From a virus (lineage: Duplodnaviria; Caudoviricetes), in the IMG/VR virus record IMGVR_UViG_3300028048_000054: a stretch of DNA of 64,000 nucleotides; one strand, 5' to 3'. The translations under genes were made by a program, and so were the position numbers. Below the pieces are notes generated by a model. The model saw nothing but the letters and a program-made list of their open reading frames with translations, did no database searches and had not been told where the DNA came from. Below are positions 1,169 to 56,870 of this stretch, piece after piece (position 1 is the first letter of the stretch; each line of letters starts with the position of its first letter).

Positions 1169-2221
1169 TTATTCAGTCGCAGGTAAATCGAACAATACAG
1201 TTGTATTAGTTCCACCAAAACCTTCGGTTACATCTGCCCACGAACCTATTACACTTTGTAAGTTTGACGGGAAATGTACTGTACAACCTGTTACACCTGG
1301 TAACATACGACTAAACTGATTTGTATAAGTACCAAAAGATGTAGATTTAAGAGCTGGAAATGAAACACTAGTTAATGATGGGCAATTATAAAAACAATAA
1401 TAAAAACACTCTCTTGCATCTATTGTATCTAATGAAGGAAATGTCATACTAGTTAAAGCAGTATTTGAAAAAGCACTATTTAATCCACGATATGCTACTT
1501 TCTTTAATGCTGGTAAAGACACGCTAGTTAAATTAACATTATCAGCAAGAACAACCTGAAACCCTTGACTATAGATATTAACTAAAGAAGGAAATCTAGC
1601 TTCTGTTATGTTACAAAATCTAAAAGCATAAGACATGCCTTGAGAAGAAACATTTTGTAAAGAATCAAAATTAATACTGGTTAGAGTTGAACAATTGTTA
1701 CAGACAGAATTTAATCCATTATCTTCTATATCAGTGACACGACCAAGATTTAAAGACGTTATTGATGTAAGTGCTAACATATCTTTCATCCCGCTATAGG
1801 CACTGACTGTTGTTAGTTTAGGAAAAGAGACGGAAGTTAAATTAGAACAACCGAGAAATGCTGCCTCTAAACATTCTCTTTTATTAACATCTTCTAAATC
1901 TGGAAAAGATACTGTGCGAATATCTGGATGACGAGCAAATTCGTACATCATACAATATTCATCAGCAAAACTTTTTAGTCCAGTAAAAATAATGTCGGCT
2001 TGAGTTGCTGGTTCATGATAGGCACCATTCTCATCAATATTGCCAAGTATATCATCTATAGTTATATTGTACTTTTTTCCGCCGCTAGGAATTGAATTAA
2101 TAGCAGTAGGCAAATTACTTAAATCTTGAGTTTGAGGTAAAGTGCCACCTTTACTACTTAATGCTGTATAAGCATCAGCCACCTTTTGTTGAGCATTTTG
2201 AATTGCAGTCGCTATACTCAT
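1169..2221 (-). CDS. BspA/LRR_5-type leucine-rich repeat protein
   Basis: About 25-aa repeats of type AFxxCxxLTSVSFPxLxxV. N-terminal SIATAIQ...AYTAL..KGGTLP...LPTAINSI helical anchor typical of phage LRR proteins. GGAG SD. Confidence 0.8.
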   Translation of the reverse strand: MSIATAIQNAQQKVADAYTALSSKGGTLPQTQDLSNLPTAINSIPSGGKKYNITIDDILGNIDENGAYHEPATQADIIFTGLKSFADEYCMMYEFARHPDIRTVSFPDLEDVNKRECLEAAFLGCSNLTSVSFPKLTTVSAYSGMKDMLALTSITSLNLGRVTDIEDNGLNSVCNNCSTLTSINFDSLQNVSSQGMSYAFRFCNITEARFPSLVNIYSQGFQVVLADNVNLTSVSLPALKKVAYRGLNSAFSNTALTSMTFPSLDTIDARECFYYCFYNCPSLTSVSFPALKSTSFGTYTNQFSRMLPGVTGCTVHFPSNLQSVIGSWADVTEGFGGTNTTVLFDLPATE

Positions 2222-2229
2222 AAATTCTC

Positions 2230-4254
2230 CTATAACGCATTAATAAGTGCTTCTATATTTCCACAAGTATCATAGAATAATTTTGCACTTACATATTCTA
2301 CATCTGTACTAGTATTAGAAACAGATGTTACTAATGATGATTTCCAATCTGGCCAAGTACTTCCTAATTGTTTTAATCTATACAAAGTAACATTTATACC
2401 TTTATCACCATTTAAACTTGGGTAAAAAACCTGAAGTGTTTGAAAATATCCTATAACTGTTCCACTAGCACTAATTGCGCTAACTTGACATAAATAATCT
2501 AAATTTAAATCTACACTTTGCATAGAATAATTAAATTTTACTCTATATAGTCCAGAATCAGTTAAATCATCTACATTAGGTAGTGGTAATGTTCTATTAG
2601 GAAATAATGTTGTATTTTCTGACCAAGATGGAGCATTATATACTTTAATTTCACTGCTTTCTTGAACGAGTAATGGTACCCATTTATAAGATTCTACAGT
2701 ACCAGAAAAACAAGTAAAATTGATTACATCTCCATCAACAAGATTATTGAATGTAATACCTAGGGAACTTAGTGTTCCTACATCAGCGGGAAGTTCTCCT
2801 AATACGTTGCCATTTGCATCTTTAAATGTGAATGTAACTAAATTATCACTTTCATTATACGTTAGATAACCATTAGTTACATTAGCATATGTTTCTGGTA
2901 CAACAGATTTTACTACCAGCCAAAACATTTCTGGAGTTGCAACAACTTTATCTGAATCAAATGTTACAGTTTCACTTGTTGTAGACTCTAATTTACATTG
3001 ATATAAATATCCATTTGTAAAATCAGATGTTGTAGTACCAGAATATAGTTTTACTTGACCTACATTAGAACTACTAGGTGTAGGCATCGTATCTGTTACT
3101 TCTACACTATTTCCAGAAGGTAATCTTTCTGAAAATATTTTGCCAGTATTTCCGTCTAATAAAGGCCATTCATATACTTGTAGCGTTTTGGCGGTGGCGT
3201 TAGTTAGTAACGCGGATGAAGTATTACCGATTTGTATAGCACCTACAGCGTTTGCAGACGTTCCTGCACCTATAGCTATAGCATAATTGGCCTCTGCCTG
3301 CGAATTGTAACCTACTAAAGTACATCTTTCGTGGTAGTGGTCATTGGCACTTGCGCCTAAACACACGGAACGCTGACCGCGAGCCAATGAACTCTTACCT
3401 ATAGACGTGCTATATGAGCCGCCCGCTTCGGCACTTGACCCAATGGCGGTGCTAGCGTAAGCGGTGGCACTCGCCGAATTATTAGACGCATTACCACCGC
3501 CGACAGCGGTCCCATACTCTCCAGCGCGAGCGTTTGCACCAACTGCTGTACTCCCGTTAATGCCGACAGAAGTATTTGCTCCAATGTTCAAACCATAATC
3601 GCTAGTCGCAGGCGTTCCCAAAATAGTAAGCGAGTTTGTGCCCGTAGCAGTATTTTCTAGCTTGTTATCAGTTACCCATTTAATAGCACCATCGGAATTA
3701 TCTTTTTGAATTAATTGTTTATTTCCAGTAGACCCTTTGTGAAAATTGGGTAACATAGCTTCTAATGGATAAATAGTATCTTCCATTAATATATCTTCAA
3801 TTTCAGCATCTCTTTCTATGCAGAACACCATATCTGTACCAATTAGATGATACCAAGCTTCATTAGCCTTATATTGCACTATTTCATATTCCCAAGTAGT
3901 ACCACTATCTGCATATTCTGCTGGTAAAATACCTATAAAATGTAATGGTGCTGTCGGTTCTTCAGACAAACTATCAAAATATGGTGCTTCTAATTCTATT
4001 TCACTTTCATCAATAGTTATTGTTGCATAAACAACATTATCTTCTTCGCAAGTAATTTTTTCCAACGGGTTAGTATTTTGCGGCGCACCACCTGCTTGAG
4101 CATTTAATGTTCCATCAGCTTCAACAGTAAGATTTTCACCAACTTTTATACCACCAAGTCTGTTGGCAGTAGCAGTAGGCAAAACGTAACTTCCGCCACC
4201 ACCAGAATTAGAAATAGAAAATGCACCTAAACTTTTAATATTATTTATTTTCAT
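2230..4254 (-). CDS. tail fibre/adhesin-like protein with YadA-head-like repeats
   Basis: YVLPTATANRLGGIKVGENL fibre motif. About 14-aa S/TAIG/AVG repeats (GSTAVGANARA, ASTAIGSSAEA, YAIAIGAGTSA). C-terminal knob-like domain ending W.DW. Confidence 0.65.
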   Translation of the reverse strand: MKINNIKSLGAFSISNSGGGGSYVLPTATANRLGGIKVGENLTVEADGTLNAQAGGAPQNTNPLEKITCEEDNVVYATITIDESEIELEAPYFDSLSEEPTAPLHFIGILPAEYADSGTTWEYEIVQYKANEAWYHLIGTDMVFCIERDAEIEDILMEDTIYPLEAMLPNFHKGSTGNKQLIQKDNSDGAIKWVTDNKLENTATGTNSLTILGTPATSDYGLNIGANTSVGINGSTAVGANARAGEYGTAVGGGNASNNSASATAYASTAIGSSAEAGGSYSTSIGKSSLARGQRSVCLGASANDHYHERCTLVGYNSQAEANYAIAIGAGTSANAVGAIQIGNTSSALLTNATAKTLQVYEWPLLDGNTGKIFSERLPSGNSVEVTDTMPTPSSSNVGQVKLYSGTTTSDFTNGYLYQCKLESTTSETVTFDSDKVVATPEMFWLVVKSVVPETYANVTNGYLTYNESDNLVTFTFKDANGNVLGELPADVGTLSSLGITFNNLVDGDVINFTCFSGTVESYKWVPLLVQESSEIKVYNAPSWSENTTLFPNRTLPLPNVDDLTDSGLYRVKFNYSMQSVDLNLDYLCQVSAISASGTVIGYFQTLQVFYPSLNGDKGINVTLYRLKQLGSTWPDWKSSLVTSVSNTSTDVEYVSAKLFYDTCGNIEALINAL

Positions 4255-52523: not shown

Positions 52524-53360
52524 ATGATAGACGCAAAGTACATTAATGTTTGTAATCATAGGTTAGTGTGCGAGCCAATTGAACTAGAAGTTTTAGATTC
52601 TAGTGCTGGCACATATAAAGCAACCCTTCCTTATCCAGCAATTACAGAGAAGGCGTTGGTTTTTATTAGAACTTATGATGATGAAAAAAAGTACTTTCAC
52701 GATGAATCTAGTTATTTGGAAACTCTAAATTATTCTTACCGTACTGTAACAGGTTCAATGGATGAATTACCAGAAGGTGGACTTATTAAACACATAGGTA
52801 TTACAAACTATGAGTTTATGTCCGATACGGAAATTGTTTTTGGTACTATTCAAGGTGATGATACAATTAATAAAATTGATTTAACAGAAGGTCGTGTTCC
52901 AAAACAAATTATTCTCATAGATTACAATGTTAAAGCAGATAAGTGTCCTATTTGTAATGGTACTGAAATTACACAAGATATAAATTTTAGTGGTACTGGT
53001 GAAGTAATGACTAATGAGGGACACGATAAGATTGTTTCTCGTGTATTAAAAGCCTTACTAACACCTTATGGGGAATCAGCAGAAGACATTGCGTTTGGTT
53101 CTGCATTAGATACATTGATAGGAAATGAATTGGACTTAACTATTTCTGCTACAATTCAAAAGCATATATATGATACTATCAGTTATTTGATAAAATTACA
53201 AAGTAATGTTGAACTACAGCCAGAGGAAATTATAACAGGAGTTGAAAGTATTACAGTTAAACAGGACGATAAGATACCTACTAAATTAAATATAACAGTA
53301 GTTGTCACAGACTACAATGGTGAAAAAGTTCCCTGTGTACTTTCATTAGATGTTGACTAA
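52524..53360 (+). CDS. baseplate wedge protein with gp25/GPW-like C-terminus
   Basis: CPICNG, KALLTPYG....FGS.L..LIG, PEEII..VESI.V. Confidence 0.7.
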   Translation: MIDAKYINVCNHRLVCEPIELEVLDSSAGTYKATLPYPAITEKALVFIRTYDDEKKYFHDESSYLETLNYSYRTVTGSMDELPEGGLIKHIGITNYEFMSDTEIVFGTIQGDDTINKIDLTEGRVPKQIILIDYNVKADKCPICNGTEITQDINFSGTGEVMTNEGHDKIVSRVLKALLTPYGESAEDIAFGSALDTLIGNELDLTISATIQKHIYDTISYLIKLQSNVELQPEEIITGVESITVKQDDKIPTKLNITVVVTDYNGEKVPCVLSLDVD

Positions 53361-53361
53361 T

Positions 53362-53793
53362 ATGCCTAAATTTGGAAATAAATCATTAAGTATTTTACAA
53401 AACGCCCACCCAGAATTAAGACGGGTACTAAATGAGGCAATTAAATATTTTGATTTCTCTGTAATTGAGTCAGTTAGAACTCAAGAACAACACGAAGCAA
53501 ATGTAAAGGCTGGAAAGACAAAAACAACTTGGGAGAAGTCAAAACATCGTGCTCGTTTAGATAATGAGGGTCGTATGACTTCTTGGGCGGTCGATATTGT
53601 TCCATATCCTTGTGATTGGTCAGATAAAGCCAGTTTCGCATTAATGGCAGGGTATGTATTAGGAATCGCTGCCGTTTTACATAGACAGGGATTTTTAACA
53701 CATAAGTTACGTTGGGGTGGGGATTGGTCAGGTGACGGAAAGACAAATGATGAACGATTCTACGATGGACCGCACTTTGAACTGGTAGATTAA
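53362..53793 (+). CDS. endolysin, M15-family peptidase
   Basis: F...S...L...HPEL, RT.EQ, SKH, AVDIVP, RWGGDW, DGPHFEL. Confidence 0.9.
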   Translation: MPKFGNKSLSILQNAHPELRRVLNEAIKYFDFSVIESVRTQEQHEANVKAGKTKTTWEKSKHRARLDNEGRMTSWAVDIVPYPCDWSDKASFALMAGYVLGIAAVLHRQGFLTHKLRWGGDWSGDGKTNDERFYDGPHFELVD

Positions 53794-53795
53794 TT

Positions 53796-54119
53796 ATGAC
53801 AGACTTATCAACATTAGTAGTTTTATGTTCAGTAGGTACAATAGGTGTAATTCAGTGGACTAAAGAATTGGTTCAATCTGTTTCCACTAAGAACTTTGAC
53901 CACCTATATCAAGTTTTATTGTCTTTATTTCTATCAATAGTATCTGGTTTCTTTATTTGGAAAATTAAATATTCCACAGAAACATACTATATGGTATTCC
54001 CTCTAACACTTGGGGTGTTATCAGTAGTGCAATTAGGGTATGATAACATTATTAAATATCTTCAACAGGCCATTGAAGGTATAATGAAAAAGTTTATTTC
54101 AAATGAACAAGATAAATAA
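53796..54119 (+). CDS. holin
   Basis: 107 aa with three hydrophobic segments and QLGYD near the C-terminus; adjacent to the endolysin. Confidence 0.7.
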   Translation: MTDLSTLVVLCSVGTIGVIQWTKELVQSVSTKNFDHLYQVLLSLFLSIVSGFFIWKIKYSTETYYMVFPLTLGVLSVVQLGYDNIIKYLQQAIEGIMKKFISNEQDK

Positions 54120-54657
54120 AATAATCATTTTTATGTTACTCCTGGTTCTAGGTGTTTTGTTATTTCAAAACTACCTACTTCGCCGTAATGTAAAAGAGGC
54201 CGTAGAACAAGGTGGAACATTACCTCCAGGTGTACAGCAAGAAGTAACTGTTAAGCAGGACCACGTTACAATTAAAGAGAAAGAAACCAATACTGTAACA
54301 GGGGAAGTGATGGTTAACACTCAGACATTATATGTACCACCAGAAGGTCAAGTGGTTATTACAACAACTGATGAGGGTAAGACATCAGTGAAACTAACTA
54401 ATAAGGGATTTACATTTACACCAGGTTTAGTATTTGTACCATCAAAAGATATGAATATTGGTGTAAATGCTAGATTAGTGTACTGGAATAGATTTGGTGC
54501 TGGTGTTGGTGGTATTATTTCAATCACAGATGACCCAAAACCAGCGGGAATTGGTTTTGTAGATTATAGATTTTATAAGAATTTTGCAGTAGGTGTGGCA
54601 TATAGAGAAGCAATAACTGAACGTGGTATAGGTGCAACTCTTACATACTACTTTTAA
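54103..54657 (+). CDS. membrane-anchored protein with C-terminal amphipathic beta strands (candidate spanin-like)
   Basis: N-terminal TM IIIFMLLLVLGVLLF; C-terminus GIGATLTYYF. Confidence 0.5.
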   Translation: MNKINKIIIFMLLLVLGVLLFQNYLLRRNVKEAVEQGGTLPPGVQQEVTVKQDHVTIKEKETNTVTGEVMVNTQTLYVPPEGQVVITTTDEGKTSVKLTNKGFTFTPGLVFVPSKDMNIGVNARLVYWNRFGAGVGGIISITDDPKPAGIGFVDYRFYKNFAVGVAYREAITERGIGATLTYYF

Positions 54658-55679: not shown

Positions 55680-56870
55680 ATGGAATTTATAGAAATTATT
55701 AAAATTATTTGGCACGATATGATTACAACACCGTGGGGAGCATTACTCGGTATTGTGATTCTAATTTTGTTCTTATTTAAGGAACAAATTCGGGAAATTA
55801 TTGATTTTATAATGAAACGTAAAAGTGCATCTTATGGTAAATCCGAGTATAGTAAAAAAGATGTTTTGAACCACCCTATTTTCAGAGACTTAGATTATTG
55901 GATTAATAAAGGTATTAAATTAGTAAAAATTGAGAAGTCGTATGCCAAAGAACTTATTATGAAGGATGTACTTTATATTAAGTTTAATGTGATAAAAGAC
56001 CTATTGACAAATACCATTAAAAATGATACTATAGATAGTATGAACAATTATGATTTAAAGAAGTTTTTCCAGGAACTCTTTAGAGATATGGATGCCCAAC
56101 AGGTAATTGGATGGAGAAATGCTGGTATACCTGAAGTATTTATTAGAAAATATTTAACTATGCAAAGAATGGGGCAAGAAGTTGTTCAGAATACAATTAA
56201 AGTATTTTTAAGCAGTGCTATTGATGCCACCACTTACACAAAGTGTTATTTGATTTTATCCGTATTAGATGCACAATTAACGAACGTATATGCAAATGCT
56301 GTATCTACGGCTTTATCATTAAACGGGGACTTAAATGGTACGATTTATAAGGGGGTTATTATTGGCACGTCTCACACAATGTATGCCATAGATGCCCCAA
56401 TATCTGAGGATTTAATTGTATCAAGACTGGATGAGTTGCTTTCAAAAGTACATTGTTCACGTGCAGGAGTCGTTTTATTTCACGAATATCCAGCAGACGA
56501 CCCATTTGATGGGAAATTTTCTATTGTATATGAACAATGCTCACCAGGAGTTTCAGTGGATAAGAAAGATGTACAATATATGCCAGCATACTTATTAAAT
56601 GAGTTTAAATCCCCATTTGAGAAGGGAGAATTAGTTGTTGGAACAATTTTTGATTTTGATTATGGTGTGGGTAAGATAATGCGGGAGAACGGGACAGAAG
56701 TTTTGGCGGTGTACCCACTTAAAGATAATAGTACATTAAAAGGATTTATTAAATTGAATTGGCTTTCTAAAAATAAGTATCAATCAGATATAAAACAGGT
56801 TGACTTATTAAAAGAGTTACAAGACAGTTCAGAAGATATTAAAAAATTATTATTAGGGCATAAACAATGA
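55680..56870 (+). CDS. TM-anchored protein with C-terminal GAF-like domain
   Basis: TM GALLGIVILILFLF. C-terminal LDELL....CSRAGV..FH...FS.VYEQ...G....VYPLK....LKGFI.L.W fits the GAF pattern. Confidence 0.6.
   Translation: MEFIEIIKIIWHDMITTPWGALLGIVILILFLFKEQIREIIDFIMKRKSASYGKSEYSKKDVLNHPIFRDLDYWINKGIKLVKIEKSYAKELIMKDVLYIKFNVIKDLLTNTIKNDTIDSMNNYDLKKFFQELFRDMDAQQVIGWRNAGIPEVFIRKYLTMQRMGQEVVQNTIKVFLSSAIDATTYTKCYLILSVLDAQLTNVYANAVSTALSLNGDLNGTIYKGVIIGTSHTMYAIDAPISEDLIVSRLDELLSKVHCSRAGVVLFHEYPADDPFDGKFSIVYEQCSPGVSVDKKDVQYMPAYLLNEFKSPFEKGELVVGTIFDFDYGVGKIMRENGTEVLAVYPLKDNSTLKGFIKLNWLSKNKYQSDIKQVDLLKELQDSSEDIKKLLLGHKQ

Follow-up and report, generated by a model that had tools for sequence, protein, structure and literature searches.

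The window analysed here is the whole 64-kb stretch of phage DNA (64,000 nucleotides). The phage is a myovirus with a G+C content of 35%, and its close relatives are 158-184 kb in size. Three adjoining genes on the plus strand make up the locus. The first (53350..53793) encodes a 147-aa endolysin, a T5-type L-alanyl-D-glutamate (M15) peptidase with a single domain and without a wall-binding module. This protein matched the PHROG endolysin family phrog_465 (E 4e-34) and, weakly, Peptidase_M15_4 in Pfam. By tblastn it matched 1,367 phage records, among which all ten of the most frequent host genera were Gram-negative (Vibrio, Salmonella, Escherichia, Klebsiella and others). The second gene (53796..54119, plus strand) starts 3 nt past the endolysin ORF and encodes a 107-aa holin-like protein with three hydrophobic segments and a charged C-terminal tail; its match to the PHROG holin family phrog_2073 was weak (E 0.025).

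The third gene (54103..54657, plus strand) has an ATG start and encodes the 184-aa, Cys-free protein that we call X. It begins inside the last 17 nt of the holin-like gene, an overlap that indicates translational coupling of the two. Baseplate genes lie on one side of the trio (Baseplate_J, E 2e-19) and tail-fibre-like genes on the other. A preliminary description of this DNA had presented the ORF at 54103-54657 as the third gene of an endolysin-holin cassette, and the ORF calls and the phrog_465 match bear this out. The features that it had listed for the protein were likewise recovered, namely the lack of Cys, an N-terminal hydrophobic helix, a beta-rich middle and six amphipathic strands ending in YYF.

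Family distribution and gene neighbourhood

Close relatives of X number 22, with identities of 52-97%. All are metagenomic and unnamed, and every one ends in YYF. Among 1.84 billion cluster representatives, a profile search picked out 250 clusters (50% identity) at E <= 0.001, nearly all of them 160-215 aa in length with an N-terminal hydrophobic segment and a C-terminal F or L. P0031, a 4,104-aa match from the same search, is a eukaryotic cadherin-repeat protein and was discarded as a false positive. When 172 family sequences were compared by BLAST, 165 formed one group linked at no less than 35% identity over at least 100 residues, and seven fell outside it. Motifs of the family include Y-[VI]-P-P-E-G, K-G-F-x-F-x-P-G, Y-W-x-R-x-G and N-T-S.

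Comparison of X and 101 members with Pfam and PHROG found no covering family, with scattered single weak matches only. X and two distant members had no match in DNA and protein searches of GenBank phages (50,697 records), and PHROG and BFVD searches found no similarity of X to phage structural proteins. The 30 ESM Atlas clusters nearest to X are viral hypothetical proteins, and our literature search found no description of a lysis protein of this type. X thus belongs to a large, previously undescribed protein family.

Prophage copies were detected with the family HMM in 42 of 301 Elusimicrobiota genomes. The same HMM had no match in 401 genomes from the phylum of a Clostridium, 401 from the phylum of a Pseudomonas and 251 from Planctomycetota, and a single partial match, N-terminal only, in 251 from Patescibacteria; these 1,304 non-Elusimicrobiota genomes represent four phyla. 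As the family occurs almost only in Elusimicrobiota among the genomes searched, it serves as a marker that predicts the host phylum of the window phage and of its rumen and gut relatives. Judged from this one gene family, the most probable host of the window phage is a rumen- or gut-dwelling bacterium of the Elusimicrobiota. One database name within the family points to Endomicrobium.

Five Elusimicrobiota genomes that carry the family were checked for envelope functions. Omp85/BamA (PF01103) scored over the cut-off in all five, Lgt was found in all five and LolA in four, indicating that the hosts have an outer membrane, a barrel-assembly machine and a lipoprotein pathway. The family is thus restricted, among the genomes searched, almost entirely to a phylum with two membranes. 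As LolA and Lgt are present in these numbers, we rejected the idea that a lipoprotein spanin is lacking because the hosts have no Lol pathway.

Family loci were collected with degenerate two-motif DNA patterns, whose matches were mostly due to chance and were removed by filtering with the family HMM; genomes were also searched directly. The preliminary description had called for a survey of co-occurrence with lysis genes, and the outcome was uniform: in every recovered context the X gene follows a small holin-like membrane protein, a cell-wall hydrolase or both. At all 11 loci of the first round, a protein of 70-116 aa with hydrophobic membrane segments is encoded directly upstream or within 81 nt, and its gene usually overlaps that of X. 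The overlap measures 17 nt in the window and at loci L001, L107 and L113, 32 nt at L028 and 47 nt at L111. Several of these upstream proteins are homologous to the holin-like protein of the window, which shares 29% identity over 89 aa (pairwise E 4e-8) with the protein in the same position of an Elusimicrobiota prophage.

The usual order at 12 loci from Elusimicrobiota genomes is hydrolase, holin-like gene and X; at two of them (L114 and L124) an M15 peptidase is followed directly by X with no holin between. The hydrolase itself varies among lineages. It is of the T5-type M15 class in the window, and elsewhere X lies beside Peptidase_M15_3 (E about 1e-13 to 1e-19), Phage_lysozyme (E about 1e-17 to 1e-19) or DUF5675 (E 2e-36). 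A conserved X beside interchangeable hydrolases is typical of a lysis-cassette mosaic. The family is also present in a cultured organism with a complete chromosome, Elusimicrobium posterum Dip510, whose X is 40% identical to that of the window (E 2e-39). Here the order is tail fibre, M15 peptidase, holin-like gene and X, and X, at about 826.8 kb of NZ_CP152277.1, closes the prophage next to tRNA-Glu and tRNA-Lys.

These data support X as a conserved member of the lysis cassette. A place beside lysis genes does not by itself establish a function, as illustrated by lambda bor, which adjoins Rz/Rz1 yet has no lytic role.

The N-terminal helix and the search for spanins

The structure of X was predicted by AlphaFold2 with a 101-sequence alignment (mean pLDDT 93.6, pTM 0.75). 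The model consists of a helix at residues 3-36, five strands within residues 46-98 and six strands within residues 101-183, and a model from a shallow alignment had the same topology with a pLDDT of 72. The N-terminal helix is predicted with a pLDDT of 85-95 and contains a putative uncleaved inner-membrane anchor at 54121..54180 on the plus strand (residues 7-26). Its hydrophobic core is an uncharged run of 15 residues (7-21), extending to residue 26 when QNYLL is counted, and is followed by RR. The helix is strongly hydrophobic and rich in Ile, Leu and Phe, and a SAR-domain reading was rejected on these grounds.

About a fifth of the family (34 of 172 members) has a Cys just past the helix, and the other 138 have none near the helix end. 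The residues before the Cys, where it occurs, are mostly non-canonical (LRGC, LPYC, FHYC and similar), in contrast to the LAAC of a true Elusimicrobiota lipoprotein encoded nearby. We rejected the lipoprotein reading as a family feature, since the Cys is a minority trait in a mostly non-canonical motif.

The preliminary description had noted no nested or adjacent lipoprotein ORF by X, and this held in all of our scans. The 64-kb window, scanned in all frames from all possible starts, contained no credible lipobox ORF and none adjoining X; the only candidates were short ORFs with TTG or GTG starts that lie inside or antisense to larger ORFs. The same scan of G003, a complete, terminally repeated 158-kb relative of the window phage, likewise found none that was credible, with a few TTG or GTG ORFs antisense to or inside real genes. 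No lipobox ORF was present inside the cassettes of 20 family loci. Nor did the window or G003 encode a small protein with an anchor and a coiled coil near the cassette. Canonical spanins located elsewhere, which had been named as evidence against the proposed role of X, were found neither in the 64-kb window nor in G003.

Several Elusimicrobiota prophage cassettes do encode, just upstream of the lysozyme, a protein of 73-106 aa that combines a hydrophobic segment at its N-terminus with a coiled coil, a layout resembling that of an i-spanin. Such proteins could act as partners if X were exported with its N-terminus cleaved. X would then be either a free small outer-membrane protein that weakens the membrane alone or a barrel-type o-spanin working with an inner-membrane partner. 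The hydrophobic run is short enough for this, as the uncharged N-terminal run of the family has a median of only 15 residues, a length also found in cleavable signal peptides, and the outer-membrane features and cassette evidence would apply equally. Three observations argue against cleavage. As read from the sequence, no small-x-small motif follows the hydrophobic run of X, whereas a secreted protein of a related phage has one in an ordinary cleavable signal ending in VLAQS. The QN..LL at the helix end is invariant in the close relatives of X, which would be unusual for a signal peptide that is discarded. Finally, neither the window phage nor G003 has a candidate for the small partner protein near its cassette. 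We consider a cleaved X unlikely and favor a retained inner-membrane anchor.

Beta domains and comparison with known systems

The five predicted strands after the helix make up a soluble-type beta domain, putatively periplasmic, at 54238..54399 on the plus strand (residues 46-99). In this region V or I alternates with K, E or T throughout the family, and the face that is not hydrophobic is 38% charged with 1% Gly. The composition changes in the six-strand up-and-down barrel domain predicted at 54403..54654 on the plus strand (residues 101-184; strands 101-113, 117-128, 131-140, 147-156, 161-169 and 174-183). These 84 residues of X contain 15 aromatics, compared with one in the 64 residues before. 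The C-terminal strands of 101 family members alternate between large hydrophobic residues (mean 0.75) and small residues (26% Gly), and 32 positions in residues 101-184 belong to the hydrophobic face. As a family-wide pattern, this alternation is not due to chance. The aromatics of X cluster at the barrel end that holds both termini and two-residue turns, and longer charged loops are at the opposite end; taken from the sequence together with the predicted strand list, this is the usual topology of outer-membrane proteins.

The signal recognized by the BAM machinery consists of a terminal aromatic or hydrophobic residue, alternating hydrophobics and a Gly at position -5. The last strand of X, IGATLTYYF (54628..54654, plus strand; residues 176-184), has a similar ending. 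Of 101 family members, 68% end in F and 32% in L, positions -2 and -4 are large and hydrophobic in 89% and 93%, respectively, and position -5 is occupied by small residues, with Gly in 61%. The resulting consensus, G-[LIV]-x-[VIL]-x-[FL], appears to fit the BAM beta-signal. The family thus has the signal-like ending of a candidate BAM substrate, and BamA is present in the five carrier genomes checked; the host of the window phage is predicted to belong to the same phylum.

The preliminary description had proposed that X inserts an oligomeric barrel and suggested AlphaFold models as a check. A closed barrel was indeed predicted, but the AlphaFold2 model closes its six strands within one chain and so does not support the oligomer as proposed. 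The best structural match of residues 98-184, and the sole match above background, was the designed barrel BBn6 (Z 8.0, rmsd 2.0 Å over 72 residues). BBn6 (PDB 9xzt) is a de novo designed soluble six-strand barrel (n = 6, shear number 8), a fold that according to its designers occurs rarely if ever in nature (PMC12478100). It has a hydrophobic core and is unrelated to X. A barrel of these dimensions (n = 6, S = 8, radius about 6 Å) would, by a rough estimate that suggests rather than demonstrates it, hold the small face of the X strands and not some 30 large hydrophobic side chains. As the interior would be too small for them, we infer that the exterior of the barrel would be greasy.

Other searches returned weaker matches. 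Alignments of X with eight-strand outer-membrane barrels scored Z 4.2-5.7, values that may arise by chance. Foldseek searches were uninformative: the PDB yielded low-TM matches (0.2) to factor-H-binding-protein-type lipoproteins, and BFVD nothing at E <= 0.001. The top matches of a PDB sequence search were FadL-type outer-membrane barrels (TodX, E 0.13, not significant), and single family members matched OMP_b-brl and OmpA_like in Pfam weakly (E 0.003-0.004). An LptC-like or beta-taco lipid bridge was also considered and rejected, as its representatives LptG and TamB (Z 4.3-5.4) rank under the closed-barrel match.

X shares its up-and-down antiparallel strands with the small outer-membrane barrels OmpX, PagL, OmpW, NspA, the N-domains of OmpA and OprF, and the designed PDB 6x9z. 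Common to these proteins and X are a hydrophobic or aromatic face opposed to a small or polar one, aromatic strand ends and a terminal Phe. They differ in that the small barrels have eight strands and a cleavable signal, whereas X has six modelled strands and appears to keep its membrane helix. The predicted barrel of X is closed and even-numbered, but its six strands fall below the eight or more that define outer-membrane barrels. Eight is the smallest strand number that we know of in a natural barrel of the outer membrane. X would thus fit the definition of an outer-membrane protein in part, having six strands and no evident cleavable signal.

These outer-membrane features bear on whether X might instead regulate the timing of lysis, as an antiholin or holin partner anchored in the inner membrane, with periplasmic beta domains that would contact the holin or monitor the envelope without entering the outer membrane. 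The coupling of X to the holin is tight and conserved, the two co-vary across lineages, and T4 RI, a membrane-tethered periplasmic antiholin, is a precedent. However, neither some 32 exposed large hydrophobic positions and 15 aromatics nor an invariant aromatic or Leu end of the beta-signal type is expected of a soluble periplasmic domain. The holin is missing between the M15 peptidase and X at L114 and L124, and these phages would still be without any disruptor of the outer membrane. A regulatory role therefore seems to us quite improbable, and disruption of the outer membrane is the role that we pursue below.

The closest functional analogy is the T1 protein gp11, the prototype unimolecular spanin or u-spanin (Kongari et al. 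2018, PMC6139136). In both cases a single protein is proposed to link the two membranes, the gene is the last of the lysis cassette, and the periplasmic part is predicted to be beta-rich and is without Cys (PMC6139136 for gp11); both are paired with different endolysin types. The anchors differ: gp11 carries at its N-terminus a lipoprotein signal, by which it is lipid-anchored to the outer membrane, and at its C-terminus a TM helix, whereas X starts with a helix and ends in a barrel-type domain. X would be analogous to gp11 but inverted in polarity, with a barrel substituting for the lipid anchor. PHROG and Pfam searches gave no match that would relate the two sequences. X has no Cys that could form a lipobox, and its C-terminus is modelled as a beta strand ending in YYF in place of a TM helix.

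Lambda Rz resembles X in its N-in, C-out inner-membrane layout, with an N-terminal helix followed by basic residues, which appears to apply to X as well, and the genes of Rz/Rz1 and X are located at the cassette end. Rz has a coiled-coil periplasmic domain, needs the lipoprotein Rz1 and requires intermolecular disulfides (PMC6139136). X, in contrast, is beta-rich and Cys-free and has no embedded, overlapping or adjacent lipoprotein ORF; it shares the N-terminal helix of an i-spanin, but in the model is all beta after residue 45 with no coiled coil.

Disruptins offer a further comparison, as gp28 of phage phiKT and X may both be non-spanin answers to the problem of outer-membrane disruption. 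The disruptin gp28 is short and helical. It is described as cationic and antimicrobial-peptide-like, from a phage without spanins (bioRxiv 10.1101/515445). X differs from it in being 184 aa long, beta and, by its model, membrane-anchored, and it is not cationic, with 14 K+R and 14 D+E past residue 36. X falls in neither spanin class, having no lipobox, C-terminal helix or coiled coil, and is not a disruptin; it may have a spanin-like function.

Proposed role in lysis

We propose that X is the outer-membrane disruptor of its lysis cassette, bridging the envelope as a single chain, and put the probability of this reading at roughly 45%. The N-terminal helix (about residues 7-26) would escape cleavage and hold X in the inner membrane as a signal anchor, and residues 37-100, approximately, would form a small periplasmic beta domain. 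Residues 101-184 would fold into a very narrow six-strand barrel with its Gly-rich face inward and its aromatic and hydrophobic face outward, which the BAM machinery of the host would insert in the outer membrane through the C-terminal beta-signal-like strand. Once the holin has triggered and the endolysin has degraded the wall, the tether would collapse or cluster, and the outer membrane would be ruptured or fused with the inner one. The collapse step follows, by analogy, that proposed for the T1 unimolecular spanin. The folded periplasmic part of X (about 65 residues) looks too short for a periplasm of ~20 nm unless it is partly extended.

That X is an envelope protein unrelated to lysis, acting in superinfection exclusion, as a receptor mask or as part of the virion or baseplate, is very improbable: the window cassette is embedded between baseplate and tail-fibre genes, accessory genes are frequent at prophage ends, and lambda lom and bor are outer-membrane proteins adjoining late genes, but X overlaps the holin frame and so would be made only along with a lethal holin, it keeps its position beside four unrelated hydrolase types in both virulent-looking phages of ~160-185 kb and small prophages, and it has no similarity to structural proteins. 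Superinfection exclusion, which the preliminary description had kept as its alternative, is unlikely in particular, because lysogens should not express an X whose translation is coupled to that of the holin.

The proposed role can be taken one step further, to a third kind of disruptor in Elusimicrobiota phages, in which BAM inserts a lumen-less six-strand barrel while the N-terminus is kept in the inner membrane. This barrel would be a natural one, smaller than any known outer-membrane protein. We hold this extended reading only tentatively and regard it as doubtful.

To our knowledge, the last step of lysis is essentially unknown outside Proteobacteria. No spanin can be recognised in about 13% of the phages that infect Gram-negative hosts (PMC6139136). 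The X family provides a concrete, testable candidate for the outer-membrane disruptor of a whole phylum, with Elusimicrobium posterum Dip510 available as a cultured lysogen. Disruption of the outer membrane is already known in phage lysis; what is new is the protein family and the proposed barrel anchor. Should the barrel exist and lie embedded in the membrane, it would lower the known minimum size of outer-membrane proteins and would mean that a BAM substrate can stay tethered to the inner membrane. Together, the helix and the small barrel predicted for X suggest, without proving it, that phages have a further, new means of breaching the outer membrane.

Cysteines of the candidate disruptor family and a conserved downstream protein

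We noted where Cys residues occur near the N-terminal helix in the family of the candidate outer-membrane disruptor. The window protein (184 aa; 54103-54657, plus strand) has no Cys just after this helix, whereas 34 of 172 family members carry one there, at about residues 20-30. The contexts of these residues were non-canonical (LRGC, LPYC, FHYC and similar). Such a Cys may join two chains by a disulfide bond, as in lambda spanins, or may be lipidated.

A 396-aa protein with a single N-terminal hydrophobic segment is encoded 1 kb downstream of the disruptor gene (window 55680-56870, plus strand). The window encodes just four strongly hydrophobic proteins, of which this is one. It matched phrog_18926, a PHROG of unknown function (E 2e-20), and was kept both in L001, another locus carrying a gene of the disruptor family, and in G003, a complete 158-kb relative of the window phage.

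Other genes at the family loci

Several Elusimicrobiota prophage cassettes encode a protein of 73-106 aa directly upstream of the lysozyme gene (L113 2533-2754 and L115 2803-3111, both minus strand, with equivalents of the latter in L121, L123 and L125). Each combines a hydrophobic segment at the N-terminus with a coiled coil, a layout that resembles that of an i-spanin. No counterpart of this protein was found in the window.

The place that the endolysin occupies in other family loci was taken by DUF5675 proteins in L117 (2698-3084, minus strand; E 2e-36) and L122 (1142-1501, minus strand; E 3e-28), and this position suggests a cell-wall hydrolase function for the domain. In L117, the DUF5675 gene is separated from the holin region by a gene for a 118-aa protein (2333-2686, minus strand). 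The match of this protein to the Acb2/Tad1 hairpin domain scored 23 bits (E 8e-5), below the cut-off of 27; the protein may be an anti-defence sponge. In L122, an Elusimicrobiota locus, the start of the disruptor gene is overlapped not by a holin gene but by that of a staphylococcal-nuclease homologue (2030-2551, minus strand; PF00565, E 1e-18) with an N-terminal hydrophobic segment.

Approximately 10-270 nt downstream of the disruptor gene, the Elusimicrobiota prophages L115 (1052-1228, minus strand), L116, L117, L119 and L120 carry an ORF of 59-64 aa that matched only the extreme C-terminus, the glycyl-radical region, of the anaerobic ribonucleotide reductase NrdD (PF13597, E 5e-12). Its product could be a glycyl-radical protein that the prophage carries as a spare part.

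Host of the window phage

The window phage is an uncultured rumen/gut myovirus with close relatives of 158-184 kb. The candidate disruptor family and the homologue of the window's holin-like protein (53796-54119, plus strand) were present in 14% of sampled Elusimicrobiota genomes and near-absent from four other phyla. Therefore, the host of the phage as a whole (window 1-64000) probably belongs to the Elusimicrobiota.
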